From Octopus vulgaris (Eukaryota): a stretch of DNA of 64,000 nucleotides. The notes below the pieces were generated by a model. That model did no database searches. It saw nothing but the letters and a program-made list of their open reading frames with translations, and was not told where the DNA came from. This document shows positions 15,002 through 59,684 of this stretch, piece by piece (position 1 is the first letter of the stretch; each line of letters begins with the position of its first letter). The stretch is taken from positions 34,720,001 to 34,784,000 of the forward strand of contig OX597824.1 in the NCBI GenBank assembly GCA_951406725.2, given 5' to 3'. Made by a program: the position numbers and the translations under genes.

Positions 15002-15133
15002 TGACTGGTACACCATGTACAACCCCATCAACAAAACACAAAGAGAACTCTTCTAAATTAACCATATCCCTTGCTATTATTGGTGCTATGATCATTCTTG
15101 TGCTTCTTGCTCTCAGTTTTTACTGTTTCAAGC
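15002..15133 (+). CDS. IL17R: IL-17 receptor-like gene, transmembrane exon
   Basis: ttcatag acceptor and C|gtgagt donor. TM segment LTISLAIIGAMIILVLLALSFYCF followed by K/R; phase 1 to 1. Confidence 0.85.
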
Positions 15134-15529
15134 GTGAGTATGCAATCTTTGTTCAGACATATGCTCAAGTAGTATCACCAAGATTATCTGTATATCTGAT
15201 AGCTTAGCCCTGATTACATGGTCTTAAGCAGATGAGTTAAATCTCATATATAGGACACCAGTCTATTTCAGGAAATATTTCTTGTTGATGTGGTTCCTAT
15301 TTTGTCACAAATTAAATACCTAAGACCATGTTGATGTGGATTCAAGACTTACAAATGTATTTCCTATTTAGTTCTTTCAGCTTTGTAATATGATGAATTG
15401 TGGATATTTATATGAGACATTATTTATATGTATATGTTTTGATGTATGTTTGATGAAGGAAATTATTATTACTGTTTGTAAATAGTAATCCATTAAATAT
15501 CTGATGTTTGTGTTGGATTATTTAGCTTG

Positions 15530-18306
15530 TATAACTGACCTCTTGAAATCTAGTAATGTCTAGTAATGTCAAAGTATTTCCATTTGCAAAACAGTGTACA
15601 ATCCAAGAATTAACTATTATAGTGTCTAGGAAATTTGTGAATAGACTAAAGTACTACTTCTTACATGTAACAGAGATGTGATACTTTTGGATAAGCCAGT
15701 CTAAGTGGTCCACACCTCCCATATATTTGTCATACTTGGCTATGAGAAATGGCTGAGGAACAAATATTTCTTTTCTATGGCTGGTTGACCATCTTTTAGT
15801 ATTTCCAACAGGGGTGGCAGACTGATGATTGCTTGCAATTGTGAAAATGCTGTTGTCATGCCACTTCAAAACAAAGAATTCTTCCTTTTCTTCAAATTTG
15901 TAGTCATAGGATCCATGATTTTCCTTTTTCCTGGATTTGTTATCCTTCATGGGACATCTGGATGTTCTGTTTGAATATACTGTACCCATGATTCTGATTC
16001 CTAAAGTTATAACTTGAGAAAAAGTTAACATAAATTTCATGATCATTGGGGTTCTCTAAGTGATTGGTCATTGATAAAACCACTCTTGAACCTAGACTGT
16101 CATCATTCCTGGTATTGGAAGTAGGATTTTTTTTTGCTTTCCTTGATATAAATCCATTCTAAAATAGTAGCCACTAGTGGCACAACAAAGCACTCACTGC
16201 TTGAAACCAAATCTTATTGGCTTACTCTTATAAATTGTTTTAGAGAGCTTCTTCCATAGTATCTTACTATGTGTTCATCTACTGACAGCCTCTTAGAGAA
16301 TGTTCCAAACCGCTTGAACTTCTGATTCAGAGCAGCAGCTAGCAGTCTAATTTTGAATCCTTTATCCTCTTTGTAGTTTTCTGCATTTTCGTTGTCAACA
16401 AAATGAAGAAACCTTTTGATGCTTAGAAATCTGTTTCCTGGCATTATTTTTTTGAATAATCAGAGTTTCAAGGTCTTCAAACACACTTCAATAATGCCAT
16501 TCACTTGGAAATTTGTGGTGTCCTAAAACAAGTAGGATTCCAATGATATTTCTCAGACAGTTTGTAAACAGACTAAAATTAGGTACATTGTTCTGTGTGG
16601 AATAAGTGACAGATTCTCTGCAAATTTCACTTAGTAAATCCTTGTCAAAGAAAAGTTAAAAAATCTCAACTTGGCTCTTGTCAAGTACTTTATCTTTCAT
16701 TGATTTCATTCTATCATCTGCTCCATCAGCAGTTGGTGATGCAAATTTGGAAAAATCAGTCTTTTTCCAAGAGAAATCTGAGCTTTTCTTTCTTTTTCCT
16801 TTTAGTTATGTTAGTTCTTCATTATCATACCGATGAAGCTCAGCACTTTCTGGCACATCCTACAAGATAATGGTTAGATTTCTGTTCTGATCATCTAAAA
16901 TCTAATCATCTAAGTCTTCTTCATCAGTCAGTTCATTTACTGGTGGAGGAATTTCAACAATATCAATAAAGTTTTCATCACTAGGAGACTCATTTTCTTC
17001 TGCATAATTTACTGTACCATTAACTGAATAGAATGACTTGACTGAATGGTAGAAAGCCATGGGAAAACATCTGAAAATAAAATTAAAATTAGAATAATAA
17101 AGAAAGAAAAGAACAAATTTTTTTCACAGCTGTCTATACATAGAAAATGTTTTCAGCATAAAAAAAGTTTGCCTCTGCAGATTGTTTTCTCTTTTATGCA
17201 ACTTCAATAGAAAATTGAAAAAATGGAGTTCTAGTGACCATGCTCCTTATATTAGGACCAAACATTTAGAGCATGCTATATTTGAGCAAAATTACTTTCA
17301 AAGATTTTCTTAACTTTATTGGACAGTTAGAACAATTGTTTATACTATATACAAATATGGGTTGGATATAAGTACTACTTACCAAAAACTTTTTGATTGA
17401 AACTGAGTGTATCCTTTCCCTCAAGATTTTCACACCGTACTGAAAATTGAGACATCAGTGTTGACAATATACATCAGACACTAGGTGTAATATTTAAAAA
17501 ACACTCCAGTCTTGATGACTAAATATATCGCGGAAAAATACAGGTGTTGCAGAAATATGATGTTTAACCTGTCTTCTATGCTGATTATTTTTATTTTCTT
17601 TTTGTGGTTAAAATTATTTGTGAGTAACCTGCAAGTTGTTTTCAAACCAATACTCAAGAAATTATAGAAATCTGACTCGCAAGATTTTATTCAATGTTAT
17701 TTAATTCAAATTCAATAGTTTTAACTGTATTATAAATATAACAGGTGCTCTCCCTTAGTTTACTTTAAGATTTACGAGAAGGCAGGTGATAAAAGGCTTT
17801 TCCTAATTTCTTCTAAGAATTTACTTGTCTCGAAGAATGATGAGTATTAAATTTCCTGACTAATTCTTCAAACTGTTCCACAAACAATTTAGGTAAATTA
17901 CTTAAGGTTATGATGGAGAATACAGATAATGCAAAGGCGACTAAATGAGTGTGAAAAATAATTCACCACTTCAAGACATGCAGATGTGAGGACAAATTCT
18001 CCTGTAGCAGCTTAGATGTCACTAAAAATATATTGGAAATCCGGGGTTTTTATAAGCTACTTTGGAGTGTCCAGGAACTAAAATTTCTGAACAATTTTTG
18101 GTTGAAAACTAGGATGGCTTTGGTTAATATTTTCTTAGTCAATGAAAAAATCTTTGTCTAAACTTGTATTTTAGCGTCAGAAGAAAATTTCCACAGAACA
18201 AATCTAGTTGATTTCTGTTCAAAATATATCTGCTACAAAGTTTCTTACTACAGATGCGTGATCCTTCTGGGCCTAAAAAAAAAAAAGGACCATGGGCGCT
18301 AACGGG
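15530..18306 (-). mobile_element. Decayed piggyBac (PGBD-type) transposon
   Basis: ORF fragments SVDEHIVRYYGRSSLKQFIR, KWHDNS and YDKYMGGVDHLD. Probable terminus ...gggcgctaacggg|ttat (degenerate TTAA) at 18306. The left boundary is approximate. Confidence 0.85.
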
Positions 18307-19501
18307 TTATGAGAAACGATAGTTTTGTAAAATCACATTGTGAGCTTGTTTTCGTTTTATATGGTGTAACATTTAAATAGTGTTATTGTCAGGCTGCACT
18401 TAAGACTTGTTAACAGTTCACAAGGAAAATGCTGTACCTGTTAAGTATTATTAGCATTTGAATTGTTTATATAACATTTTGATAGTTTAGGAGCTAGGTG
18501 GAAAATCCACCCAAGAAAAGACAATTTTTAGCTTCAAAGAAAAAACACAGTCGCAATTAATATTCATAAAGATCTCACTGTGCAACACTGAAGAAAAGGA
18601 TGATAGTTTCAGTTATATTCTGTATTATGAGAGATAGTGAAAAAGAAAGAATAAGAGAAAAAGTGATATCCTACAATTATATATCTTTACATACATATCC
18701 ATGTATAATCAGTCAATGAGAACGGGAATTTTTTTAGGCGTGAGTAGGCAAAATATTGCTAATTTGTGGTTCAAATTTTGTAATTCCTGAAATTGAAACT
18801 GATTGCATTTATTAACATTGTTAAAATCGACCTATATATAGATTTCATATATTTCATCTTTGAAATTTTCTTTTTTTTTTCACATAAATAGTTTATGCCA
18901 AATACAGAAACCCATTGCTAGCAAATGATTTTTAAATATATCGTTCATGTTGGAGGCATTAATAAAAGCCAGTCAAGAGTAGTATATCTAATGGGGGTTC
19001 TGGGACAGATCACATGATAGGGCCCAGCCCATTTTCCACGTAGCCCCAGCTAACCTCAGGCTGCTTATACTCTGTTCGATTTTTTATTTAGACAAATGCT
19101 TGCCTTATGTATAAACAACAGTATGATTGAGTACAATTGATGCGAGTGGTTGGTCGTTGGGTGGACCAAGCGCTGCGGGAAACAGTGCATCAATAAATTG
19201 TGTGGGGTCCACCAGGCTCAGTTATGCAGGAAGCTGGGATTGGAGCCAGATATACATCTAGTGGGGGTTCTGGGACAGATCACATGATAGGGCCCGCCCC
19301 ACACCCCTGGCAGGCCCCAGCCCAATGATACACGTTTGTAATCCCAACCCTATACTATACTGAGTACCAATAGGAGCCTTATAGCTTCGCCATAGGATGG
19401 ACGACCCCTTGCCAGCCTAAGGGCTTATATTTACAGCAGGGGAGCTCGACAACCAGGGTTTACCCCAAACCCTAGAAGAGCTATAAATGACTCACCTCTG
19501 T

Positions 19502-19552
19502 GCCATTTCGGCCTGTAAGGCCTCATCAGAACACCTGGCAGGTATTAATGGC
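19502..19552 (-). ncRNA. Type III hammerhead ribozyme
   Basis: The minus strand reads GCCA-UU-AAUACCU-GCC-AGGUGUU-CUGAUGA-GGCCU-UAC-AGGCC-GAAA-UGGC. All three stems pair and the core is canonical. Confidence 0.85.
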
Positions 19553-19669
19553 TCCTGGTAGTGTCAGTGTGCCTGAACCCATTCCATTACATGAATAGGC
19601 CATCAATTGGGAGCAATCAGAGTTCCACATATAGGACTGTTGAGATTAACAGCCGAAAGACTGAGGCAT

Positions 19670-19941
19670 TTACTCATCCTCACCATCTGTCCCTTCCTCT
19701 ACCACAGACTCTAGCCTTTGAATGTCCTCCTTGACCAGCTGTATTTGAGCTTCCGTGGTTTCTAAGTCCATTGCTATTTTTTCAGCCTCTCTCTCTGTTT
19801 TCTCCTTTACTGTAGATGTCTTGTTCATTCAATCAGTTTTCTGGCCAATTCCGGACGTGCTTTGCCTTTAGACACGTTTGTTTCTTTGACTATTTGCTCC
19901 AAAAACGAGAAAACTCTCTTTTTTGGTCTGTCTACATCCAT
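19670..19941 (-). pseudogene. Decayed small coiled-coil ORF of the viral element
   Basis: MDVDRPKKRVFSFLEQIVKE... then, after stops and a frameshift, EAEKIAMDLETTEAQIQLVKEDIQRLESVVEE*. Confidence 0.4.
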
Positions 19942-20436
19942 TTTTGTCATGCTATGATATTCCTGTCACGCTGATAGAAACTTGTCACGGTCTAGGAGGT
20001 GTGACAACTAATTTACAGCTTATATAAACCGACAGACTTAACAGCCCTTAACACCACTTAGCACCACTTAACAGCACTTAGCACCACTTAACAGCCCTTT
20101 TTGCTATCCATAGCTATGTATATTCCGATACATTCTAGAAGGCTGATGCAGCTATGTGAAATGCTTGTGGTTTTTCACAGTGGGACAGGAAGTAAATAAT
20201 AGCACAAGGCAGAATGTAAACATGACGTAGTCATAGCACATGGCTGAACCAGGAAGTAAACATGACGATGTCATAACAGCAGTATGGTGGCCCAAAGGGA
20301 ACATAAATAAAAAAGTGGCTGAATGCTGTGATAGTTACAGAGTAATGGTGTATGGAAGCAGGCTGTGTGGTGCTCTTTTTGGCCTCATAAAGCAGATTAT
20401 GGTGCAACCAACTTCTTTATGAAACTGGCCCTGACC

Positions 20437-21087
20437 TCATCCCAGCCTCTCTGAATAAGCGAGTTTTTTTATCTCTTCATCCAACACCAGAGGTTTGACT
20501 GAAGCATGTACTTTTTTAGCTCCAGCCTGGATCTCTGCCTTAATCTGGTCATACTTGTTGAGCTCATCAAGAATGAGGCGAAACTCTTCATCTGAGATTC
20601 GACCATCCATGAGTGCACTCGAGACATGGTCTGCGATGGTATTCAGCTTGCTCTCTGCCAGGAGTCTGACCTCGTTATGCTTTTTGGCTTTGACTGTGAG
20701 ACGGTGGCCAACAAACTTGCCTATTACTCCAAGGCTGCCACATGCCAGGGCCGCAATTTCAAGGCCCAAGACTACTGGGGCCACAATAATGGTAGACAGA
20801 AGGCCCACACCACCGATGCCCATCCCCAACACTGTGTCAATGCCATCGACAACATTGACCCCATGGCAGTATTTTTTGTACAGTTGACCCCGTTTGTCCC
20901 TCTCGTCTTCAAGTCGTTCTTTTTCCAGTTGTGAGACCTCTTGAAGCGAGTGGGATTGTGCAGTATCAATGAGATAAGGCAGATGTGGATAAAGTGTTGG
21001 CGTATAACTTAGTGTGATGTATGCCTTGCCAGCAGATTCGCTGTTAACTGATGTGCTATCAGCTGGTGGAGCAGTTGCTTGCTTCAT
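20437..21087 (-). CDS. Polinton/adintovirus-type hydrophobic membrane-active protein (216 aa)
   Basis: Open frame with ATAPP and LYPHL motifs, an amphipathic helix, a Gly-rich double hydrophobic segment (GIGGVGLLSTIIVAPVVLGLEIAALACGSLGVIG) and a C-terminal KKHNEVRLLAESKLNTI...ISDEEF block recalled from Polinton-like viruses. Confidence 0.65.
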   Translation of the reverse strand: MKQATAPPADSTSVNSESAGKAYITLSYTPTLYPHLPYLIDTAQSHSLQEVSQLEKERLEDERDKRGQLYKKYCHGVNVVDGIDTVLGMGIGGVGLLSTIIVAPVVLGLEIAALACGSLGVIGKFVGHRLTVKAKKHNEVRLLAESKLNTIADHVSSALMDGRISDEEFRLILDELNKYDQIKAEIQAGAKKVHASVKPLVLDEEIKKLAYSERLG

Positions 21088-21113
21088 GATGTTATGGAGT
21101 AACTATGGCAAAG

Positions 21114-21520
21114 CTACAGGTCGAGTTCAATTAAAACGCAGTGAGGACATCAGCGTTGGTCGTAGCTGACCTGAAGCTTACTCGGTCGCATTGGGCAAGC
21201 TCTAGTGGGGTCCCAAATGTATTAGTACCAGAGTATTGGTCTGAGGTTACCCCATATGATGTATGTTATCCCGTTAACCACAATATTGACCGTTGCTATG
21301 GTGCCCGGGGAAGTGGTAACTCTGGTTACAGTTAGTCGCATTCGGTGAACCCTGCCTGCAGCCATCATGTTGTAGCCATGCATTGGCAGATTGGCACCAG
21401 CACCGAATGACCATTCATATTGGCCCGTTCCAAGAGTGCCACTTCGTTCAGCCCACATGGTTATGAGAGGCTTCCGGCTATCGACATACCTTTTTGTGGC
21501 TACATCGTGTTCATCAACTG
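21114..21520 (-). pseudogene. Fibre/spike-like virion protein, C-terminal part
   Basis: DVATKRYVD motif (DxATKxYVD, common in viral fibres) followed by a beta-rich domain (QYEWSFGAG...). It continues after a frameshift to LIELDL*. The 5' part is deleted. Confidence 0.55.
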
Positions 21521-22418
21521 GAACGTCACCAAACTTCAAGTGAGTGCTGGGGACGGTGTCTCAGGTGGAGCTGACGGTGCCATTGTAGAAGCCTATGGCA
21601 ACCACTTCTACATTTCCCTCGACTTCAAGCTTCTAGAGAGCCATATGCCCTTCTACCAGTCAGCACTTGGTGATAGGCTCGAGTAGGAGTTGACATTTAA
21701 CGACTACTCCCTCATGGTCCAGGCCACTGGAGACGCTAACCCCAGTTACTCCATTGAAAACATCTGCCTGGAGTATGACATGGTCACACTGCCTGAACTG
21801 GCAAGGATGATCCACAACCAGTACAGTGGCTGCCTGGCCATCCTGTACGACCGTGTACTGCGGTACCGCAAAATTGCAACCAACAAGAGCAACACTTTGT
21901 GGAACGTTAACCTGAACATGCCTGCTCGCTCGATGAAGGGCATTCTGTTGTTGTTTGAGGATGTTGCTGTGCATCAAGCCTTTCAGCGGGGCACCAAGGC
22001 CTTCTACAACCCCAAGATAACCAACGTAGAAGTTACCATTGAGGGGGTCCCCAACAAGCTGTACAGCCAAGGCCTGCATGCATACCAGCAGTGGGTCGAA
22101 GCAAAGATGTTCTTTGCCGCTGGCTGCAAGTGACATCTCAAGGTGGCCATGGTCGTGAAAGACCTTGCTCTTAAAGACATGTCTTTGGGGTAGTTCTTGA
22201 CCTCCAAGTTCACCCTCTGGCATGACCTCCACACCACGGACAATGACCAGCTCCATGGCAGTGGCCGGCGTATTGAGAATGCCAGCGAGGGTGTGACCAT
22301 CCAGATTCTGAAAGCGGTAGAGGCCGTGGGTGCATTGAACATCTACCTGTACATCATTATGGGCACACAGCTCAACATCGAAGATGGCCGATTCGTCTCA
22401 GTGTGCAACTTATACTGA
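21518..22418 (+). pseudogene. Polinton-type (double jelly-roll) major capsid protein, C-terminal part
   Basis: One frame with three nonsense codons (21684, 22131, 22191): YGNHFYISLDFKLLESHMPFYQSALGDRLE*ELTFNDY...LYDRVLR...FYNPKITNVEVTIEGVPNKLYSQG...LHGSGRRIENASEGVTIQI...QLNIEDGRFVS. Confidence 0.75.
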
Positions 22419-22424
22419 TACTTC

Positions 22425-22555
22425 GTATCATCAACTCTTTCCACCGGGCCCCCACTCTGCAATTATTTGTGGAATGACCGGGTGTGGGAAAACGGTCTTC
22501 ACGCTGGACCTCCTGGAGGGCCCCTATCGTAGTTTCTTTCGGCACATTGTGTGGA
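22425..22555 (+). pseudogene. A32/FtsK-like packaging ATPase, N-terminal fragment
   Basis: PHSAIICGMTGCGKTVFTLDLL (Walker A GxxGxGKT) directly downstream of the capsid gene; truncated. Confidence 0.75.
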
Positions 22556-22839
22556 TAATGTTTGAAATTTAGTTAGATTCATTTGTGTCATTTAAATAGC
22601 AGAGAACCCCAGTCGCCACAACCTCCAGTGTTTGCAAATAACAGCAGAGCAGAGACATTCTCTATCAAAAAACTATACTGAGCTGTAGTTCAAAATTCGG
22701 TGATTAATTTTTATCATTCCATAGTGATCTTATAACAGTTGTGTATAGTAAATTATTATATTCATCTTCTGTTTCTTCATAAAAAACTATTTGGAACTAG
22801 CAAAGGTTAAGTGAATGCAATCAAATGAAATGTAAATAT

Positions 22840-25610
22840 CATCATCATCATTAACATCATCATCATCATTTAACATCCATTGTCCATGCTGGCATGGGTT
22901 GGATAGTTTTACCAGGGCTGGCAGGCTGGAGTCTCCACCAGACTCCAGTTTCTACAGCTATATGCCCTTCCTAATGCCTACCACTCTGAGAGTATAATGG
23001 GTGCTTTTATGTGCCACTAGCATAGATGCCAGTTGCATGACACTGGTAGCTGTCACAACTAGGATTTCATGTAACTTGATGGGTCTTCTTCTCAAGCATG
23101 GCATATTGCTGAAGGTCTTGGTCATTTGTCATTGCTCCGTGAGGACTGATTCTTGAAAGGCACAGGTGCTAGTTATACAACACCAGCACAGGTGTTAGAT
23201 ATGTGACACCAGCATTGCACATTACCTCCATGAGGCCCAACACTCGAAAGGTGCTTTTTACATGTCACCAACATGGGTACCAGTTATGTGATTCTGGCAT
23301 TGGCCATAACTGTGATTTCATTTGACTTGATGGTTCCTCTCAAGCATAGCATATTGTCAAATGTCTCGGTCACTAGTCATTGCCTCTGTGTGGCCCAACA
23401 TTTGAAGATCATACTTCACCACCTTGTCCCATGTCTTCCTGGGTCTACCTCTTCCACAGGTTCCCTCTACAGTTAGAGATCAGCACTTCTTTACACAGCT
23501 CTCCTCATCTATACACATTTGAGGCCCTTTGCTTCTAGGCATTGCCTCAATGCCTGAAATTTCTTCTCTAGTTCTGGTAGTGATTCAGCTTTAAGAACAA
23601 GATCCTCAGCACAGAGGAGCTCCTAGGGGCAGTCCATCTTAAATTCCTCTGTTATTGCCTGGAGGACTATGATGAACAAGAGGTGGGTGGAGGACTGATC
23701 TTTGGTGAACTCTTACTTCTACCTTGAATTCATCGCTATACTTGTTGTCAACCCTCACCTTACTGACTGCATCCTTGTACATAGCTTGTACTACTCTCAC
23801 CAACCACTCATCTATCCCTAGTTTCTGCATTGACCACCAGATAAGGGAACAGGAGATCCTGTCAAAGGCTTTCTCCATGTCAACAAAAGTCAAGTACAGA
23901 AGTTTATCTTTGGCTAGGTACTTCACCTGCAACTGCCACTCTGGAAATGTAGCATCAGAGGTGCCTTTTCCCTGGCACAAAACCAAGCTGCATCTCATCT
24001 AAACCAATTCTCTCCCTAATTAGTTGGGCTATGATCCTCTCCGTGACTTACATCACTTGTTCCAACGATTTGATGCCTTTGTAATTATTTCTATCTAAGG
24101 TGTCACCTTGTAGCAGTTGACTATGGTGCTGCTACACCAGCCATTGGGTATGTCTTTTTTGTGTACTACCTGGTTAAATATATGGGCAACTAAACCATAG
24201 CCCACACCACCAGATATTTTAAGCATCTCAGTGGTGATTCCTGATGGGCCGAAGGCTTTCCCCATCTTCATATCTTTCATATTTTTGCCTAAAATGCTTC
24301 TGTTTATTTGGATTGCTAGTCCCTCTGTTGGATCCATAGGCAGACTCTCCTCCTCCCATGAGTTCTCTACACTTAGCAGCCTTTCATAGAGGCACTTTCA
24401 AGCCTCTTTTTGCTGAGTCACTAAATGCAAGTGAACCATTATCCATGTGAGCACACTTCTCTCCCACATCATAATTTTCCCTGGCACACTGTCTTGCAAA
24501 CCAAAACACTTGAAGCTGATGGTCCTCATGCTGCAGAACATTGGTCAACTTCTTCCTTTTTGCTCTACCTCTGGCTAAATATACCTGCTTCCTAGCTTCC
24601 GTTCTAGCTGCCTGATCTAGCTCCTTGCTACCAACACCCTTCCAATCCTTCCAAGCCTGTTTCTTTGCTCTGATGGCCCTGTCAGCTACACTGTTCCACC
24701 ACCACATCACCTTAGGCCTGTTTGGCACTTTGCACTAGCCACAAATTTTGTTTGTAGCTCTCAGTAAGTTGTCTTGTAGGAGCTTCCAGTTATCCTCTAT
24801 GTTACAAGTCCTCCTTCTTCTCATTAAATGCTTCATTTAGGACATCTTTAAATCTCTGACTGTTCAAAGGATCCTTAAGCTTCCATATCTTCTTTTTCGA
24901 AACTTGGTTGCTTCTTGGGATCCTTTGTGCCAGTAGTTTGAAGTAACTAATGAGTAACCTATGCTGTGTGGTACATTCTTCTCCAGGGAAGGTCTTTGCA
25001 TTTATGAGAAGCCATGAATCCCACTTTCTGGTGAGAATGTAATCAATCTGTGTAGCATGGTCACCAGATTTGTAGGTTATCAGGTGACTGGCTGGCTTTC
25101 TGAAGTTGGTGTTGCAGATCATTAAGTCATTTGCATCACTGATCTCCAGTAGCCTTGTTCCCTCCTCATTTCAGGAACCAATTCCATGGCCCCCATGCTC
25201 TCCATGAAAGACACCTGGGGCTTGCCCAGCATATGTTCAAGAATATCTGATGATTCTAATGCCCATTTTTTCTTTCAGTACATACGTACTTTGTTGCACA
25301 CGCACACTAACATTACCCGTCCATCATAGCATGTTAGTTTTATTTCTCTCTAGTCTTTACATATCTTCTGAATTCTTAGAACAAGTTTCACAACCATAAA
25401 GCATTGCTGTTTCATACACAGGCATCATACAATCTGCCTTTCACTCTGGGAGAGAGGACTTTTGTTACTAAAAGAGTTAAAAGTTCTCTAAACTTTCTCT
25501 AACTGCTCCTTATCCTATACTTCCATTGCTTCCACTGATAATTAGGTTACCTAGATAACAGAAACTATCTGCTACTTCTAGGGAGCCTCCTGGGCATCCT
25601 AGAACATTGT
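22840..25610 (-). mobile_element. Decayed RTE-clade LINE with 3' tail
   Basis: (cat)n tail at 22840; fragments FVDMEKAFDR, GPSGITTEMLK and TQIDYIL (endonuclease). Confidence 0.88.
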
Positions 25611-27214
25611 TATCTCTGCCTTTTTTACTGAACCTAGAAGAGGTAACTCATCGATCTTTAAAGCAGTCTTTAATATTATGGTCATAACATGTCCGCTTGC
25701 CATGCTGGCATGAATTGATCATTTCAGCAAGATCCAACAGACTGGAGGATCACATCTCTCTCCAATTGTTCTTGTGGCTGGATTGCCTTCTTTATGCCAT
25801 CTACTTGAAAATATGTACTGGTGGCACCAGCATTAGTGATGTTGCCTTGTAATCTGCAAGACTGAGAGAGAGAGTATCAGAGTATGAGTTGGTTTTATGT
25901 GAGGTTCAAATATGATGGGAAAAACCAGAAAAGTTTATTGCTGTTGGGGAGATTCAAGGCTTCCCAATATCATATAAGGGTAGGTGGGTTACAGGGAATG
26001 GTGCCAAAAGAGAGATTGTGGTGATGAGGTACTTGAGTGTACCTTCAAGGTAACATGTTCCAGAAGGTAATATAGAAGAAAGCATAGAGACAGAAGGATG
26101 AAGAAAGATAGGTAAAGGTTGTTAGAATATATGTGAAGAATGAATGATTGATAGAGCTTGTGGTTGCTAATATCAAAATAAGAAGTGCTGGTGGTACTAG
26201 TTATAACAGCAGTAGGATTATATTAGCAATAATGGGTGACAAAGTAATAATTATATATCAACAGAGATTGTAATAATCATGACAGTAATGGTAATACTAC
26301 TATAACTAATTGTGATATTGGTTTATTAGATACTTATTACAGCTAGGTGGACTACAACAGATTCACAGAAATGTTCAGTGAAATAAAACAGCCTAGATTC
26401 TCCGATGAATGAAAGTTTACAGCCTGTCTTATCATTATTTATATGTGTGTGTGAATGTGAGAATATTTTTATTGATATATAAGCTTGCTTCCAAACAATG
26501 TGATCTTAGGTTCAGTCCTACTGTGTGACTTGTTGTTCAAATGTCTTCTACTGTAGCCTTTGGCCAACCAAGGCCTTCTGAGTACATTTGGAAGATTGAA
26601 ACTATAAGAAATCGACAGTGTGTGTGTATTTTTGTTTGTTCCCCTCCATCTCTTGAGAACTGGTGTTGGTTTGTCTCCATCCTTATAATATAGCTGTGTG
26701 GCAAGAGAGACTGATAGAATAAGTACCAGACTTAAAAAATAACTATTGGGCACTGCCCCAGCATGGCCACAATCCAATAACTGAAACACATAAAAAGATC
26801 AATTTAAGAAGTAGGTGACTAAGTTAGTAAAGTGAAGTGTCTTTGAACATGGCTTAGAGTTATTATTATTAGGAATGATCTATTTCTCTAGAAACTCAAT
26901 AACCCTTGTTTAAATAACTGATATCAGATTAAGATTACACAGCCACATTTTTTAAGGTCACATTTAAAAGTTCTTGCATGTCAAGTGACCACATATCTTC
27001 TTTACTTCCTTTGTAGATGATTATATCTATTTTGAAATCTCACTTTTCTGAATTCAAGTTTGATTGTGGCTGGTTTTAGAATTTTATTTTTCTGGGCCAT
27101 GTAAAATGGTATGATTAATTCTGTTGATCTTGTATGTAGTTAAAGAATTTCAATCCTTTAATTCTCATATATTGTTGATATTTTATTATTGATTGTGTGA
27201 ATTTATATTTTCAG

Positions 27215-27933
27215 GAACACTCCAAGAGAAAAGAGGGCTGTTATTTTATACAGAGGACCATACTTACCACTGTGAAGCCATTGATCAGTTTATATCTTTC
27301 ATGAATAAGAGTAAATGTAAACTAGAAGTTGCTGCTCGGCTAGTGAAAGGTGGTGATCCATTAAGACTGAGTTTAGAAATTCAAAAGTCTGATTTTATAA
27401 TTCTTGTTTACTCCAAAGCTCTTCACAAAAGAATTCAGGCATGGAAAAGCAACCAAGATTACATAAATTTTTTAAAAGAGGATAACTCAGCACTTTTGAC
27501 AGTTTCCCTTCTTAGAGAACTTAATGCAAGCAACAAACTTATCATTTGTAAGTTTCCTCAGGTACCAAACTCCAGTATCAGCAGTGAATTACCTTCAATC
27601 AAGTGTTACACTCTTACAAAAGAGTTGAACTCGCTTATTAAAAAAATCCATCGATCAAGAGTGCATCAAGAGCTTGCTATTCGTGTCAAGAGTAACAAGC
27701 TCAATCATAAATTTAACTCTTTGACAAACACAATTAAGAATGCTGCCACATTTGAAGAAAATAATTCCAATTGGTTTGAAGACAAATATATTTGCCCTAA
27801 GAAAATGGAATCTTTAAATGAAATGCCTGATTACAGTGCAAACTTTTCAGATGGATGTGAACGTAGTATTTTTTCAGTCCCTGTAAGTTATATGTTGGAA
27901 CAGATCAATGAGTACAATGACTCATCAGTATAA
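27215..27933 (+). CDS. IL17R: IL-17 receptor-like gene, last exon encoding the SEFIR domain
   Basis: tttcag acceptor in phase 1 joins the TM exon (FKR|TLQEK). LLFYTEDHTYH (SEFIR box-1-like, cf. IYSADH) and SDFIILVYSKALHKRIQAW; stop TAA ends at 27933. Confidence 0.85.
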
Positions 27934-31460: not shown

Positions 31461-33576
31461 ATCAGTTTTGCAATACAGCTAGTGAGACTGACTGGGCGAT
31501 AGTTGACAGGTGATGTGCGGTCGCCCTTTTTGAACAGAGGAATGACAGTAGCAGTTTTCCATATATAAGGGAAGAGTTTGTTAAATTATACTTTGCATGT
31601 TCATTCTTCACAGGGATGTAAAATATGCTATCAAGCCACTCTAATTTGAGTGATGGATGTTGTATGGATGTGTGTGTCTGAATCATGTTATACATACAAT
31701 TATATATGTATGTGTACACATTCACACCATCTGGCCATACACACACACTCACATACATACATACTATTTACAAACTGAGACTTGATAATGATAATTATTC
31801 AAATTTTTATTTGAAAATACCAAATTCTTTATAAACTAATCAATTATGATTTTATGAGTTTTATTGAAGTTTGCCATTCTAGTATTACAATATTGATTTC
31901 TTTTCAGTTATTTCAAACAAACCCTCCACATACAACAATTCTTTTAAATTTAAGAATGATTAATTAATGTTTTGTAAGAAATCTTTTATCATAATATTTG
32001 TCTTTCTATTTTGATAGCATTTGTTTTAAATACTCATTCATTTTCATTGGAATCTGTATTCTTCTAATTTTCTGAAGGTTAGTTTGATGAACTTGCGACA
32101 TATGTCGAAATCTATTAATTCTTTAATTTTGATACTATGCTTGAGATTATGGACAGAAGCATATCTGAATCTACAAGAAAAGAGAAATTCCAATGTTGGT
32201 TGGTTATATACATTCTTATGACGCATTTATTTTTGTATATATTAAAAGATATTGATTCATATAAAATAAATATTCATGTTTATAAGATTGATCATCATCA
32301 GAAAGGTTTTGAAACCATTAAATATTATGTTTTATTTTTTTAATATTCCATATTGAAAACAAAATGAATTTGTGGTATTAATTACTAAAACTAGATGGAT
32401 TCACATTTTTCTTCATGCAAAAACAATACTCTACATTGACATATAGAGAAGTTAGATTTGGCCATGAATAGGTTTAAACATAATTGTTTAGAAAAAATTA
32501 TGCATAATAACAGAGCTACATTTGTGTTTACTGTCATCTTATGGAGATGGATTTCATTGTTAAGGACATCCAGCCATAGAAATTATGCCAAAGCAGATAG
32601 TTGGTGCTTGGTGCAGGTCTCCAACTAGTCAGCTCAAGTCAAAAAGTTCAACCCATGCCAGTATGGAAAACATGTTAAAATGACAATGATGATGATAATG
32701 TTGGTGACATTTTATATTTCAAGATTCATGATTAATTAAAATTTCTTAATTATTCACTTTTCATCATGTGTATATTTCATCATACATATATTTTTATTAC
32801 TCACTTTTCATCATACGTATATTTTTATTACTCACTTTTCATCATACATATATATATTTTACTAGCAAGCTATTCCAAAGAAGACTGAAGCCTGTAAACC
32901 TGACAATGATAAATAAATTATTCATATTCCAATCAATATTATAATATTTTACCATTTATAACTTCAAAGTATTATTTTTACAATAAAAAGGAACAAAACT
33001 GACATCAGTCTGTTGATATATACCAATAATTACAATTTTCTGTTTATGTTTACTACTTTTGTACAAAAATTCTTATTACATTTTATGGTGCCAACTCATT
33101 CCATTTTATACTTTTGTAAAATTATGGTTCTCTGTTTTAAAGTGTTTTGTTGACCATGTTTTATTTAACCCATAAGCAATTAAACCAACCAGATCCAGCC
33201 TCTTGCACCTACCCTATAAAGTCATATTAAAAATGAACAATCACATCATTAAAGTTATGAGGTTATGCATGATTAGTTCGAAACAATTTGAATAAATAAG
33301 CATTACATTTGACAGAATAAGCTGAATGCTAAATGCTTTAAATATTTGTTGCCATGATAATAGGGGAGGTAATTTTGGTTCACGTAGGAAATGGGAACTA
33401 CTTTGACAAACCATTTACAGATATTTACAAATATTTCATATGCAAAATGTTTTACTTTATATAAGCAATAATATATGTGTGTGTTTGTAAATTTACAATC
33501 TTTGTAGATCTCATTGTTTATTTTATTAAAAATCTTTCAAGTAAAATTGGTCTGTCTTCATTTATTTATTTTACTT

Positions 33577-35980
33577 TGGCGAATCTCCGACATGTCATGT
33601 AATGTTATGGGTTGGGTCTGCCCCTCTGGCGAATCTCCGACGTGTCATGTAATGTTATGGTTTTGTCTGCCCCTCTGGTGAATCCCTGACATGTCATGTA
33701 ATGTTATGGATTGGCCCTGTCCCTCTGGTGAATTTTCGACATGTCATGTAATGTTATGGGTTGGCCCTGCCCCTTTGTCGAATCTCCGACATGTCATGTC
33801 ATGTTATAGTTTTGTCTGCCCCTCTGGTGAATCCCTGACGTGTCATGTAATGCTATGGATTGGGTCTGCCCCTCTGGCGAATCCCTGACATGTCATGTAA
33901 TGTTAATCGAACAGTAAAATTATCTTATTTTCTGTCTGTGTTTTGTTTACTTTTTTTTGACACCAACTGTTACAACTTATTCTTATTCCAAATAACCTAA
34001 ACATACACATTTGATGCCTCTCATTTGCAAACTTACCATTTCTTACTTTGCCTGAAGCTGATCCTATGCCTCTATAAAATACAGCAACTAGAACTGGTTC
34101 ACTGCATATAAGCTGACACAGTTTACTATAGTTTGTATGTGCCACTCGTATGGACTATTTAAATTCAAGTAACCACCAATTGGTTTATGCAAATTGTTAC
34201 CAGGCTATGGTCAGGAGTTAGGAAAAAAGTGGGAAAAACTATCAATCTGCAAGTTTTCTCTGTAAATAAAATAATCATCGGTCTCTCTTGCTGAACGGTA
34301 AATAAACACACCAATATCGGTTGTCAAGTGATGGTAGTGGTGGTGGGGAGAGAACAAACATAGACACACACACATACGATGGGATTCTTTAAATTTCCGT
34401 CTACCAAATCCACTCACAAGGCTTTGGTCAGCCTATATATACATATATATATGGGTTTGTCTGCCCTTCTGGTGAATCGTTGACATGTCATGTAACGTTA
34501 TGGATTGCGTCTGCCCCTCTGGCGAATCCCCGACGTGTCATGTAATGTTATGGATTGGCCCTGTCCCTCTGGTGGATTTTTGACATATCATGTAATGTTA
34601 TGGGTTGGGTCTGCCCCTTTGGCGAATCTCTGACATGTCATGTAATGTTATGGTTTTGTCTGCCCCTCTGGCGAATCCCTGGCATGTCATGTAATGTTAT
34701 GGATTGGGTCTGCCCCTCTGGCGAATCCCTGACATGTCATGTAATGTTATGGGTTTGGTCTGCCCCTCTGGCGAATCTGACATGTCACGTAATGTTATGG
34801 GTTGGCCCAGCCCCTTTGGAGAATCTTCAACATGTCATGTAATGTTATGGTTTTGTCTGCCCCTCTGGTGAAACCCTGACTTGTCATGTAATGTTATGGA
34901 TTGGCACTGCCCCTCTGACAAATCCCCGACATGTCATGTAATGTTATGGGTTGGGTCTGCCCCTCTGACGAATCTTTGACATGTCATGTAATGTTATGGG
35001 TTGGCCCTGCCCCTTTGGTGAATTTTTGACATGTCATGTAATGTTATGGGTTGGCCCTGCCCCTTTGGCGAATCTCCGACATGTCATGTAATGTTATGGT
35101 GTTGTCTGCCCCTCTGGCGATTCCCTGACATGTCATGTAATGTTATGGATTGGCCCTGTCCCTCTAGTTAATTTTCGACAAGTCATGTAGCGTTATGGAT
35201 TGGCCCTGCCCCTTTGGCGAATCCGACATGTCATGTAATGTTATGGTTTTGTCTGCCCCTCTGGCGAATCCCAGACGTGTCATGTAATGTTATGGATTGG
35301 CCCTGTCCCTCTGGTTAATTTTCGACATGTCATGTAGCGTTATGGATTGGTCCTGCCCCTCTGGCGAATCTCCAACATGTCATGTAATGTTATGATTTTG
35401 TCTGCCCCTCTGGCGAATCCCTGACATGTCATGTAATGTTATGGGTTGGGTCTGCCCCTCTGGCGAATGTCCAGCATGTCATGTAATATTATGGATTGGC
35501 TCTACCCCTCTGGTGAATCTCCGATATGTCATGTAATGTTATGGATTGGCCCTGCTCCTCTGACGAATCTCCAAAATGTCATGTAATGTTATGGGTTAGG
35601 TCTGCCCCTCTGGCGAATCTGACATGTCATGTACTGTTATGGGTTGGCCCTGCTCCTTTGGAGAATCTTCAACATGTCATGTAATGTTATGGTTTTGTCT
35701 GCCCCTCTGGTGAATCCCTGACATCTTATGTAATGCTATGGGTTGTGTCTACCCCTCTGGCGAATTTCCAACATGTCATGTAATGTTATGGGTTGACCCT
35801 GCCCCTTTGGCGAATCTCTGACATGTCATGTAATGTTATGGGTTGGCCCTGCCCCTTTGGTGAATTTTCGACATGTCATGTAATGTTATGGGTTGGGTCT
35901 GCCCCTCTGGCGAATCCCCAACATGTCATGTAATGTTATGGATTGGCCCTGCCCTGGCAAATCACCCTCACATGTCATGT
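33577..35980. repeat. 49-50-bp minisatellite in two blocks (33577-33905 and 34455-35980)
   Basis: Unit catgtcatgtaatgttatgg(g/a/t)ttg...ctgcccctctggcgaatc..ga, with no unique spacers. Confidence 0.95.
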
Positions 35981-46460: not shown

Positions 46461-49440
46461 AGGCAACTTGATGTAGTTGTGTGTGCTACATATCGCCCTC
46501 CAGATGCCCCAAGCCATGTGGGCAAGTTTGAAGACTGCCTTATAAAAATAGAAGAAGTTCTAATCACATTAGAACAACACATAAGTGTACTTCTTATGGG
46601 AGACTTCAATCTACCCAATGTCAGATGGCCCGAGGGCCTTTCTCTCCCAGGAATGACAAGATGTGAACGAGGACAGGCGAGGTCCCTCCTGAACCTCATC
46701 AACACCCTGTACATGGAGCAAGTAATACTCCAACCAACCAGGGCAGGTAACACACTGGATCTCNNNNNNNNNNNNNNNNNNNNNNNNNNNNNNNNNNNNN
46801 NNNNNNNNNNNNNNNNNNNNNNNNNNNNNNNNNNNNNNNNNNNNNNNNNNNNNNNNNNNNNNNATGGCCCGAGGGCCTTTCTCTCCCAGGAATGACAAGA
46901 TGTGAACGAGGACAGGCGAGGTCCCTCCTGAACCTCATCAACACCCTGTACATGGAGCAAGTAATACTCCAACCAACCAGGGCAGGTAACACACTGGATC
47001 TCTGCTTCACAAATGACATGGATCTCATCCGTAATGTGAAAGTGACACTGACACTACTCTCGGATCACAACATGGTAGAGCTGACCATGTACGGGCCAAA
47101 AGAGAGCACAGACATGCAGCCTACAAGAAACCCTCAGAATCTTTCCAGCTTGAACTACCATAAGGCAAACTGGAAACAAATTGAGAAAGAGATCCTCAAA
47201 CAAAACTGGCCTAAATGTCTCTCCTCGCCAGACATCGATGTGAAACTTCGACAATTCATGTCTGTAATGCAAGCCATATGCTACAAATGTGTCCCAGAGA
47301 GAAAGGCCACTGTACACAAGAACAAAATCCCCAGAGAGAGGAAAATTTTAATGAGACGGCGTACAAAAATTTCAAATCGTTTAAACAAACAGATTGAAAG
47401 CAGTGAAAAGTCCCGCCTGAAAATAAAACTGTTGGAAATTGAAAAATGTCTGCAACTCTCCCATGAAAAGGAAAGAGCAGACAAAGAAGCCTGGGCTATA
47501 GACAACATAAAATCTAACCCCAGAGCTTTCTACAGGTATGCCAAAGAAACAGCTACGGTGCACTGTAGAATAGGGCCACTCCTTGAAAAGGATGGCACAC
47601 TTACAGGAAAACCAATGAGGGTAAGTGAAATACTGAATGAGCAATTCAAGAGTGTTTTCACTCCACCCCATGGGCATCTCCAAATCACCAATCCAACTGA
47701 CTTCTTTACCACTGCAGATATAAAATCAGAGGCGGCAACGATAGATTACATCGATATAAAGGAAGACGATGTAATAAAGGCTATAGATGAAATGAAAACA
47801 GACTCAGCTACTGGCCCCGATGGATTCCCGGCAATCCTCCTAAAAGCATGTAAGAGAGTCCTAGCAAGACCACTGCAGTTCCTCTTTCAGAGCTTCCTTG
47901 CAGCTGGCAAACTTCCAAGAAAACTGAAGGAAGGTAAAATATGCCCCATTCATAAAGGAGGTAGCAGAGCGGAGGCCAAGAACTACAGACCTATCTCTCT
48001 GACCTCACATCAGCAAGGTCATGGAACGAATAGTCAGAAGGAAACTGATCACCTTCCTTGAAGAATATGACTTGCTGCCCGACACCCAACATGGTTTCCG
48101 ACCAGGGAGAAGCTGTTTAACTCAGCTCCTACAACACTATGACTGGGTGCTGAAACGGCTGCTCAACCACTCAAATGTGGAAGTGATATATCTCGACTTT
48201 GCAAAGGCCTTTGATAAAGTCGATCATGGAATGATATGTCACAAACTGCGTGATCTCAACATAGTTGGAAAACTGGGAGAATGGCTTCATGACTTTCTGA
48301 AAGATAGAAGTCAGGTGGTAGTAGCCAATGGGGCCACTTCCATTAACACGCAAATAGTGAGCGGTGTTCCGCAGGGCACTGTTCTGGGACCACTACTGTT
48401 CATAATGGCCCTCTCAGACATGCCCTCAGCCACACAGAGAGCCACGATCACAAGTTATGTAGATGATACAAAAGTTTCACAGGCAATACAGAACCCTGAG
48501 GACACTAAACGCCTGCAATGTGAGCTGGACAAAATATACAAGTGGGCTGAAAAGAATAGCATGCAGTTCAATGCTGAAAAGTTTCAAGCTTTATACTATC
48601 AGCATGCAAAACTAAATGCAATACCCAATGAATACACTGGACCTGGAGGAATGGCGGTCCCAGAGGCACAATCAGTGCATGACCTGGGTATTTACATGAG
48701 TGATGACGCAACCTTTCATGTACATGTTGCTAAATTGGCAATGAAATGTAGACGACTGGCCGGATGGATTCTTAGAACCTTTAGAACAAGAGAACAAGAA
48801 ACCATGATGGTCCTCTGGAGGACACTTGTCCTAAGCCACTTTGACTATTGCTCTCAGTTATGGTCACCATCCAGTGTCAAGTTGATCACAGAGCTCGAAG
48901 CGATCCAGCGTAGCTACACGAAGAAGATAGCCTCTATGCAGAATGTAAGCTACTGGGAAAGACTCAAGAGATTAAAACTATATTCCTTGGAGCGTAGGCG
49001 GGAAAGATATGCCATAATATACATCTGGAAGATCCTGGAGGGACGTGTCCCAAACTTTGGCATTGAGAGTTACACAAATGCCAGAACTGGGCGCCACTGC
49101 GTGGTGCCTAGGACTCCAAATTTGCCATCAAGATGTAGGACAAGATACTGTGATAGCCTGGGCTTCTGAGGCCCACAGCTCTTCAATATCCTCCCGAAGA
49201 ACCTGAGAGACCTGCATGGGGTGGATGCAGATGTCTTTAAAATGAAACTGGATCTCTTCCTGTCAGGTGTCCAAGATGAGCCAACTTCACAGCAGGAGGT
49301 GCAGATGAGGGCAGCTGCATCGAACTCTCTCATGCACCAAATGGTAGTTGCTAAAAAGCGTTCGTGAAGTAAAGCCAAGTAGCAACACCAAATGGCAGTG
49401 CCCCAGCATGGCCACAGCTCATGAGCTGAAACTAGAATCA
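46461..49440 (+). mobile_element. Young CR1/L2-like LINE ORF2 (APE endonuclease + RT), 5'-truncated
   Basis: YRPP, GDFNLP, LDL and SDH (endonuclease); YLDFAKAFD, GVPQGTVLGP and YVDD (RT). One frameshift near 48010 and a stop at 49167. Confidence 0.93.
46764..46863. other. Assembly gap (100 N) flanked by a duplicated ~140-bp overlap
   Basis: atggcccgaggg...actggatctc appears both before and after the N-run. Confidence 0.95.
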
Positions 49441-56918: not shown

Positions 56919-59684
56919 TGTATGTGTATGTATACACTTGTGCGTGTGTGTGTGAGTGAGTGTATGCACATGTGTGTGTGTTTTTTTATTTTTAACTATT
57001 TGAAATCTTCCTGTAAGGAAGCAGCTGGTTTCTAACAAAGATACAATGTTCCATTGTTAAAATGTAGATAAGAAAAATAAAGTCACATTTCAAACTTGCA
57101 TATTTTTACTGTGCCACTAACAGATTGCATTTGTAATGTGTGATTTAACTAGTTAATTTCTTTTCCTGAAATGGATTGCAGCCTAGGGGTGATCCCAAAA
57201 TGAAGGTGCGCATGCATGTGTATAAGAGATATTCTCTTTAATGATAAATTACCATAGATTTTTCCACTTTAGTGACACTGACTTATTAATAAAAAAAAAA
57301 AACAGTTTGCTACCAGTTCCAAAGGTACCTATAGATTTTTCCACTTTAGTAACATCAATCCCCATACAATTCTCTTCTGCAGACTGATGTCACTATGACA
57401 GTGAAAAAAAGAAAAGACTACCACTTCTGAAAATGTATATATGTGTGTGTGTACCCTGCCCAGTGGGGATTACAATCCTAGAACTTAAACCAGTGAGGGA
57501 CCTGGGTATCGACATGAGTGATGATAGCTCTTTCCAAGTGCACATTACAAAAGTGGTGACAAAGTGCAGATGGAAGGCTGGATGGTACCTGAGAACCTTC
57601 AGAACATAGAGAAGGGAATCATGATGGTCCTCAGCTGCCTGGACTACTGCTCCCAACTATGGTCACCCCACATTATAAAATTAACAGTAGACTTTGAAGC
57701 AATCCAGCAAAGTTACACAAAGAAGATCATCTCATTGCAACTGCCCAGCTACTGGGAAATGCTGAAACAGCTAAGACTCTACTCCCTGGAGCGAAGATGA
57801 GAGAGATTTGCAGTAATATACATCTGGAAGATCTTGGAAGGGATTGTACCAAGTTTTGGCATTGAGAGCTACATAGATGCCAGAATGGGTCGCCACAGTG
57901 CAGTGCCAAAGATCCTAACATTGCTGTTGTGTTTGAAGATCAGTTACTGCAACAGCTTGGGTTTCAAGGTTCCACAGCTTTTTAATATTCTCCCAAAGAG
58001 CCTAAGGGACCTACACAAAGTGGATGTAGGTGTTTTTCAAACAAAACTGGATCTCTTCCTGCCAAGAATCCCAGATAAACCTACCTCGATGCAGGAGGTG
58101 CAAATGAGGGCAGCGACATCAAACTCCCTTATTCACCAAATGCCACATATCAGAGGAAGCTCTCAAAAATGATAGTGTAGCAAAACGGCAGTGCCCCAGC
58201 GTGGCTGCAGCTTTGAACTGATACAGATAAAAAAAATAAATGAATATATATATATAGGCACAGGAGTGGCTGTGTGGTAAGTAGCTTGTATGTGTATGTA
58301 TACACTTGTGCGTGTGTGTGTGAGTGTATGCACATGTGTGTGTGTTTGTGAGTGTATGCACATGTGTGTGTGTTTTTTTTATTTTTAACTATTTGAAATC
58401 TTCCTGTAAGGAAGCAGCTGGTTTCTAACAAAGATACAAAGTTCCATTGTTAAAATGTAGATAAGAAAAATAAAGTCACATTTCAAACTTGCATATTTTT
58501 ACTGTGCCACTAACAGATTGCATTTGTAATGTGTGATTTAACTAGTTAATTTCTTTTTCTGAAATGGATTGCAGCCTAGGGGTGATCCCAAAATGAAGGT
58601 GCGCATGCGTGTGTATAAGAGAGATTCTCTTTAATGATAAATTACCATAGATATTTCCACTTTAGTGACACTGACTTATTAATAAAAAAAAAAAACACAG
58701 TTTGCTACCAGTTCCAAAGGTACCTATAGATTTTTCCACTTTAGTAACATCAATCCCCATACAATTCTCTTCTGCAGACTGATGTCACTATGACAGTGAA
58801 AAAAAAGAAAAGACTACCACTTCTGAAAATGTATATATGTGTGTGTGTACCCTGCCCAGTGGGGATTACAATCCTAGAACTTAAACCAGTGAGGGACCTG
58901 GGTATCGACATGAGTGATGATAGCTCTTTCCAAGTGCACATTACAAAAGTGGTGACAAAGTGCAGATGGAAGGCTGGATGGTACCTGAGAACCTTCAGAA
59001 CATAGAGAAGGGAATCATGATGGTCCTCAGCTGCCTGGACTACTGCTCCCAACTATGGTCACCCCACATTATAAAATTAACAGTAGACTTTGAAGCAATC
59101 CAGCAAAGTTACACAAAGAAGATCATCTCATTGCAACTGCCCAGCTACTGGGAAATGCTGAAACAGCTAAGACTCTACTCCCTGGAGCGAAGATGAGAGA
59201 GATTTGTAGTAATATACATCTGGAAGATCTTGGAAGGGATTGTACCAAATTTTGGCATTGAGAGCTACATAGATGCCAGAATGGGTCGCCACAGTGCAGT
59301 GCCAAAGATCCTAACATTGCTGTTGTGTTTGAAGATCAGTTACTGCAACAGCTTGGGTTTCAAGGTTCCACAGCTTTTTAATATTCTCCCAAAGAGCCTA
59401 AGGGACCTACACAAAGTGGATGTAGGTGTTTTCAAACAAAACTGGATCTCTTCCTGCCAAGAATCCCAGATAAACCTACCTCGATGCAGGAGGTGCAAAT
59501 GAGGGCAGCGACATCAAACTCCCTTATTCACCAAATGCCACATATCAGAGGAAGCTCTCAAAAATGATAGTGTAGCAAAACGGCAGTGCCCCAGCGTGGC
59601 TGCAGCTTTGAACTGATACAGATAAAAAAAATAAATGAATATATATATATAGGCACAGGAGTGGCTGTGTGGTAAGTAGCTTGT
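56919..59684 (+). repeat. Near-identical tandem duplication of ~1.38 kb (56919-58286 and 58287-59684) containing CR1-like 3' fragments
   Basis: Identical ORF pairs (57564/58960 and 57727/59123). The junction cuts a SINE head at a tgt microhomology. Confidence 0.93.

Follow-up and report, generated by a model that had tools for sequence, protein, structure and literature searches.

A decayed Polinton-type virus remnant, likely of a protease-less group, in the last coding intron of an octopus IL-17-receptor-type gene

Known Polinton groups and an intronic island in Octopus vulgaris

Two elements of the sea anemone Nematostella, Polinton-N1_NV and Polinton-3_NV, have been described as possible chimeras in which a capsid of the Polinton-like virus (PLV) type is combined with a protein-primed DNA polymerase (pPolB) and an RVE integrase (alignment supplement and related text of PMC4642659), and both are entered without a protease in Table S1 of PMC4028283. 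In their passages on animal elements, PMC10120064 and bioRxiv 10.64898/2026.06.19.733378 present cnidarian and bivalve elements as the sole animal ones outside the main Maverick groups, and the latter places ATPases from Octocorallia, Hydrozoa and Bivalvia near Aquintoviruses and describes variable polymerase/helicase modules in group 2 Mavericks. Maverick-Polintons have left degraded germline relics, one of which lies on human chromosome 7 (PMC8502044). Searches of the open literature gave no report of this PLV-capsid group from cephalopods (such records may exist in preprint supplements), and the relevant parts of PMC5499653 and bioRxiv 10.1101/2025.04.19.649669 make no mention of cephalopods. 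Here we analyzed a GC-rich island in a 64-kb stretch of the Octopus vulgaris genome (hereafter the window). The island is very probably what remains, in decayed form, of a single insertion of a Polinton-type double-stranded DNA (dsDNA) virus into the germ line. The virus was likely a member of the protease-less Polinton-N1_NV/-3_NV group, and its remnant was later copied passively with the host gene.

The window comprises positions 34720001-34784000 of contig C11 in a host genome of 2.8 Gb and 227 contigs (C2, C11 and C30 denote contigs of this genome, L-numbers related loci and P-numbers homologous proteins). The GC content of the island (18978-22552) is 0.479, compared to 0.30 and 0.31 in the flanking DNA of the window. 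It occupies part of a 12.1-kb intron (15134-27214), the last one in the coding region of a transmembrane SEFIR gene of the interleukin-17 (IL-17) receptor type. The splice sites of the transmembrane and SEFIR exons are canonical and their phases match, and the last exons encode a transmembrane helix followed by a SEFIR domain, as is expected of an IL-17 receptor. The position between these two exons agrees with a first-pass annotation of the window, which had been made from the letters of the sequence and had proposed a dead Polinton/adintovirus-like virus at this site.

Capsid, ATPase and the architecture of the island

The viral features of the island include a capsid frame and an ATPase stub (Table 1). 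The capsid frame contains three in-frame stops (21684, 22131 and 22191) in 293 codons and was searched with X in place of these stops. Among 1706 candidates 985 homologs were found at E<=1e-3, the best of which are 69-72% identical to the window frame and about 430 amino acids long; one homolog, from the sea slug Elysia marginata, is annotated as major capsid protein. A structural model of the intact homolog P0002, to which the window frame is 71% identical, was made from an 86-row alignment (predicted local distance difference test score, pLDDT, 75). Foldseek analysis of this model gave the PBCV-1 capsid as best match (E 3e-16), together with iridovirus and virophage capsids. The double jelly roll foreseen in the first-pass annotation was found in this way on the homolog, and the window capsid frame is predicted to share it. 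The start of the ATPase stub overlaps the end of the capsid frame. The stub matches Pox_A32 at E 0.008, and the full-length protein of related locus L010 matches the same family above the cut-off (E 4.7e-8). The proposed succession of a capsid-like frame and a GxxGxGKT ATPase was recovered in the homology of both frames to L010 proteins, and the ATPase is of the A32 type.

The fibre-like gene and the hydrophobic open reading frame (ORFa) upstream of the capsid are both encoded on the minus strand, as had been described. The close neighbourhood of capsid and fibre is not part of the viral design: the two are adjacent because an internal deletion of ~4.2 kb joined them at 21521/21522, which connects positions corresponding to ~1338 and ~5557 of L010 and which removed the 5' part of the fibre gene. 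At the right-hand side homology stops at ~22550, and ~7.9 kb including the integrase, the polymerase and the right end was lost. No polymerase, integrase or right terminus was found in 424 kb around the site, in line with their reported absence from the window. The copy is thus a derivative shortened by deletion, not an autonomous Polinton. The fibre protein of L010 matches phage tail-fibre families. The frame of ORFa is still largely open (221 codons). Fold matches of an ORFa model are uncharacterised iridovirus proteins, and SLATT-type matches were obtained only at E>0.1. Searches of Pfam and the Atlas gave no informative name for ORFa.

The left end of the island starts with AGTAGT at 18978, as had been noted. 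This hexamer occurs 30 times in the window and is by itself weak evidence, but 26 of the first 30 nucleotides agree with those at the end of L040, a related element, and L011 and a second Polinton relic, on C2, carry at their ends the GGGGTTCTGGGACA motif that follows AGTAGT here. While the AGTAGT terminus stood up to analysis, the left end was found to hold in addition an extra copy of the terminus and half of a gene that belongs to the right end. The two terminus copies align over 49 nucleotides with 92% identity (4 differences), are spaced 270 nucleotides apart in direct orientation, and enclose the half of a Cys-rich gene. In the relatives this gene is located at the right end and points inward (6 of 33 loci); it was found at the left end in none of the 33. 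Terminus copy 2 is likely the original left end. The doubling may have arisen by a template switch, a suggestion made with less confidence, in which replication would have begun on the right terminus, copied ~270 nucleotides and then moved over to the left terminus, which is identical. Alternatives are an inversion and a second, partial insertion. The segment that follows copy 2 (19302-20131) gave no match in the relatives or in the C2 relic. An AGTAGT in L034 and L035 was considered as a terminus and dropped, as it lies within an insertion resembling a short interspersed element (SINE).

Table 1. Features of the island and of the neighbouring host exons (positions in the window).
Feature	Position	Strand	Basis
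Host transmembrane exon	15002..15133	+	Hydrophobic helix, AG acceptor, GTGAGT donor; kept in paralogs
Viral terminus copy 1 (AGTAGT start and conserved terminal motif)	18978..19031	+	Likeness to L040 end; motif alignment
5' half of small Cys-rich gene	19123..19248	+	Residues 1-42 of 94, E 1.4e-6
Viral terminus copy 2 (direct repeat of copy 1)	19248..19301	+	Repeat comparison
Sequence of viral GC content with short coiled-coil frame 19670-19828 (-) and 10-nt tandem repeat 20036-20105	19302..20131	.	
Left subterminal sequence	20132..20256	.	73-77% nucleotide match to left parts of L020, L034, L035
ORFa, conserved all-helical protein with hydrophobic hairpin	20400..21081	-	367 homologs, best 67-73%; frameshift near end
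C-terminal part of fibre-like gene	21222..21521	-	Minus-strand piece 21270-21521; residues 151-237 of L010 fibre, E 1.9e-16
Major capsid pseudogene (double jelly roll predicted), first ~136 residues gone	21522..22400	+	Homology to residues 137-427 of 430 of L010 capsid, 69%
A32-type packaging ATPase stub with Walker A, truncated by right-hand deletion	22384..22552	+	Walker A stub 22384-22548; residues 1-49 of 210 of L010 ATPase, 61%
Host SEFIR exon (last coding, to stop codon)	27215..27933	+	Pfam SEFIR E 2.7e-5, above cut-off; splice phase

Related elements and assignment to a Polinton group

In total 33 related loci were collected, 31 from metagenomes and two from metagenome-assembled genomes (MAGs), many of them short fragments; a scan of IMG/VR viral contigs for relatives gave none. 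The relatives are elements of 13-14 kb with inverted ends (present in L010 and L015), an RVE integrase and a protein-primed PolB. With L010 and L008 as reference loci, the gene order is ORFa, fibre, candidate minor capsid, ORF436, ORF448, capsid and ATPase, followed by five small genes, the RVE integrase, pPolB and the Cys-rich gene. An ATPase after the capsid was found in 26 of the 33 loci, an integrase in 11 and pPolB in eight. In two loci (L008:9967-13596 and L035:6394-8734) pPolB is replaced by a fusion of a PolB-like protein to a superfamily 1 (SF1) helicase, of which the helicase was recognised by Pfam and the polymerase motifs by eye; the gene order is otherwise unchanged. None of the 15 ORFs selected to tile the near-complete relative L010 matched a protease in Pfam or PHROGs. 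By analogy to these relatives, the parent of the island would have had a linear genome of ~14 kb with inverted ends, a protein-primed PolB or else a PolB-helicase fusion for its replication, an RVE integrase for its integration and the A32 ATPase for the packaging of its DNA.

Some relatives occur in bacterial and archaeal MAGs, many of them of clam symbionts (L039 and L040; P0009, P0021 and the cluster of P0095). These are likely host or viral DNA that was mis-binned and annotated as bacterial hypothetical proteins. The contig of another relative, L024, opens with TTAGGG repeats (1-70), which suggests a subtelomeric insertion in an animal genome.

Comparison of the capsids points away from canonical Mavericks. 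The canonical Maverick capsid family PF21738, which may not span both Maverick groups, gave no match in the capsids of the family, neither in 86 close nor in 37 distant ones, and the best adintovirus fold match of the capsid model is 13% identical. A profile of the family did not match the capsid of the C2 relic (HHalign probability 0.1). Inspection by eye of the alignment in supplement 3 of PMC4642659 indicated that the capsid and ATPase motifs match the Polinton-N1_NV and -3_NV rows along their length, with agreement in the capsid at four or more separate motifs (for example RSMKGILLLF/RSMSGLLLLF and GVPNKLYSQGL/GVPNRVFSQGL). The window element thus appears likely, from its sequence relationships, to belong to the protease-less Polinton group with a PLV-type capsid rather than to the adintoviruses, and the label adintovirus-like given in the first-pass annotation does not hold in its strict sense.

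An assignment to the canonical Mavericks or adintoviruses (Polintoviricetes group 1 or 2) is improbable. It would account for the pPolB, RVE integrase and AGTAGT ends of the relatives, for the ORFa (37% identity), fibre and terminal motif held in common with the canonical relic on C2, and for the PolB-helicase fusion, given the variable modules of group 2 in the preprint cited above. It does not account for the capsid, which lacks both a PF21738 match and a profile match to the C2 capsid, or for motifs that by eye follow the Nematostella N1/3 rows of that supplement and not its canonical rows. Several points weigh against the assignment to the protease-less group as well. The tie to Polinton-N1_NV and -3_NV was made by eye, without an E-value and without a tree containing those sequences, and the replacement of pPolB by a PolB-helicase fusion is compatible with group 2 Mavericks too. 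The absence of a protease rests on the silence of Pfam and PHROGs, and ORF436 of the relatives has no assigned identity. The minor capsid label of one gene of the relatives is a guess, for which support was sought and none found, and L015 has no integrase, though both ends and pPolB are present.

The C2 relic itself is a second, unrelated Polinton relic (C2:139508606-139517452); it is ~8.8 kb long and has AGTAGT at either end. It encodes a canonical capsid (PF21738, E 1.9e-17), an integrase, and homologs of ORFa (37%) and of the fibre, and has the terminal motif in common with the window element. The 6-mers that flank it do not match each other. By eye, it resembles the Polinton-1_HM row in the PMC4642659 supplement.

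Copies, age and comparison with known systems

Searches of the host genome with DNA, capsid and ATPase identified three copies of the island, all on C11, with a spacing of ~94 kb and matching flanks. Over 3577 sites they show 31 and 45 differences, inside a duplicated unit of 93-94 kb, and identical stop types as well as the two deletions are found in all three. They result from a recent ~94-kb tandem duplication of the host gene, and there was therefore one integration. The full-length copies with terminal inverted repeats and a target duplication that the first-pass annotation had anticipated were not found; beyond the three tandem copies, no dispersed or intact copy was detected in the host genome. 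A search with the integrase gave three weak matches at other sites, including one within the C2 relic. The differences from the left copy (L003) number 45, of which 18 are located in 268 nucleotides (20844-21111), and both versions of this segment are present in sequencing run X3; the cluster may stem from an older haplotype or mark a conversion tract.

The element is dead, as had been stated, and its copies show no selective constraint. In addition to the two deletions and three stops, the CpG observed/expected ratio in the island is 0.47 versus 0.73-1.13 in seven relatives. The terminal branch of the window capsid is 0.33 against a median of 0.15 in a quick tree of 59 rows, which contains database homologs only and has long branches among distant rows. 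Comparison between copies gave synonymous to non-synonymous counts of 1:19 (versus the left copy) and 0:4 for ORFa and, in two comparisons that are not independent, 4:5 for the capsid, without an excess of synonymous change. As a rough estimate with a wide error and uncalibrated in years, the stops, the doubled terminal branch and the differences between the terminus copies would each correspond to a neutral divergence, after insertion, of a few per cent up to ~10%.

These counts also bear on a possible domestication, in which ORFa or the island would have been retained for service to the host IL-17 receptor locus. The largely open frame of ORFa and the persistence of the island, of which there are three copies and which occurs under four organism labels, would fit this explanation; we nevertheless regard it as very improbable, as the ORFa counts, the frameshift near its end and further indels in contigs of other organisms speak against it and the copy number is accounted for by duplication of the host gene.

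Among 24 listed sequencing runs, from nine studies and under four organism labels, 18 contain the stretch in whole or in part and 11 contain at least half of its words. In listed pieces of four runs, one per label, one of which could be the source of the window itself, contigs span the right junction in four of four, the internal junction in three clear cases and one marginal case, and the left junction in two of four. Since the junctions recur under four organism labels, the insertion and both deletions predate the split of these ~1%-diverged lineages. An assembly artefact (contaminant viral DNA in the scaffold, or haplotypes falsely placed in tandem), to which the 97-99.5% identity of the three units, the 100-N gap in one of them and the mis-binning of relatives in MAGs might point, is scarcely credible given these bridged junctions, a CpG depletion that fits long residence in the host, and the two versions of 20844-21111 in X3, which differ at 18 positions, the same number as between window and left copy. 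The copy number of exactly three is less certain than the insertion itself.

With the junctions in runs of several organisms, the double jelly roll of the capsid homolog, the A32 ATPase, and the pPolB, RVE integrase and inverted ends of the relatives, the earlier proposal of a germline-integrated Polinton-type dsDNA virus is supported. Further points that weigh against the favoured explanation are the following. No empty site and no target duplication were found: the paralogs located on C11 (34.588 Mb and 34.948 Mb) and on C30 are without the element, but also without the unique left flank, which makes them uninformative here, and the same holds for the nearest older paralog. The genome searches score the best candidates only, and distant copies may be missed.

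The paralogs of the SEFIR exon (C11 34.39-34.95 Mb, C11 22.5 Mb and C30 9.14 Mb) form a cluster and comprise three at 98-100% identity, others at 86, 79, 79, 33, 24 and 24%, and a fragment. The DNA downstream of the 86% paralog is 95-97% identical, which suggests conversion or unequal crossing-over. The host intron also holds a decayed DDE_Tnp_1_7 (piggyBac-like) transposase (15654-16459, minus strand) and, as judged by eye, a decayed long interspersed element (23639-25170, minus strand). Elsewhere in the window an array of ~49-nt tandem repeats and a 1.4-kb tandem duplication are present (33574-35980 and 56919-59684), and there is a 100-N gap at 46764-46863.

The element would have arrived from outside the host, because the genome yielded no further member of its capsid family and its close relatives stem from material of other marine invertebrates. 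It would then have lost ~4.2 kb internally and ~7.9 kb at the right-hand side, and drifted neutrally in the intron. A lone insertion without dispersed copies fits such an arrival better than a resident transposon and bears on the question whether animal Polintons move as viruses. A wider proposal, which we regard as possible but rather doubtful, is that Polintons with PLV capsids form a large group of infectious viruses of marine invertebrates, one of which entered the cephalopod germ line once from outside with a genome already defective at integration, its left end recording a template switch in protein-primed replication. If so, the terminal motif, ORFa and fibre held in common with the C2 relic would be direct evidence of swaps of capsid modules on a shared replication chassis. 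The family to which the capsid points is large and mostly unnamed: it comprises 985 clusters at 90% identity, its order of about 15 genes is fixed, and its polymerase is exchangeable. The copy in the window is inert and its position in an immune gene gives no sign of function; its value is that of a fossil, and of a shared marker for dating recent IL-17-receptor duplications.

Compared to the adintoviruses and Maverick-Polintons of groups 1 and 2 (Polintoviricetes), as characterised in the relevant sections of PMC8502044, the relatives share inverted ends that begin with AGTAGT, an RVE integrase and pPolB, and the element and its relatives share an A32/FtsK ATPase and a double-jelly-roll capsid, but the capsid is of another family, no adenain protease was detected, and neither PLA2X nor GasderminX was recognised. 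Cnidarian and bivalve elements that fall outside the main Maverick cluster resemble the element in their association with animals and in a non-canonical capsid, and the homologs with a name were found in a sea slug and in bins of clam symbionts; no cephalopod is named in the corresponding passages of PMC10120064 and bioRxiv 10.64898/2026.06.19.733378, with which the comparison is by description. The closest resemblance is to Polinton-N1_NV and -3_NV, judging from their published alignment rows and table entries: capsid and ATPase motifs (by eye), pPolB and RVE integrase (in the relatives), the lack of a detected protease and a length of 13-16 kb. The host here is not a cnidarian, however, the window copy is a relic with two deletions and a doubled left end, and the close family, 70-85% identical internally, is clearly farther from the Nematostella rows. 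The island likely extends to cephalopods the one group of animal Polintons that has been reported from outside the main Maverick cluster.

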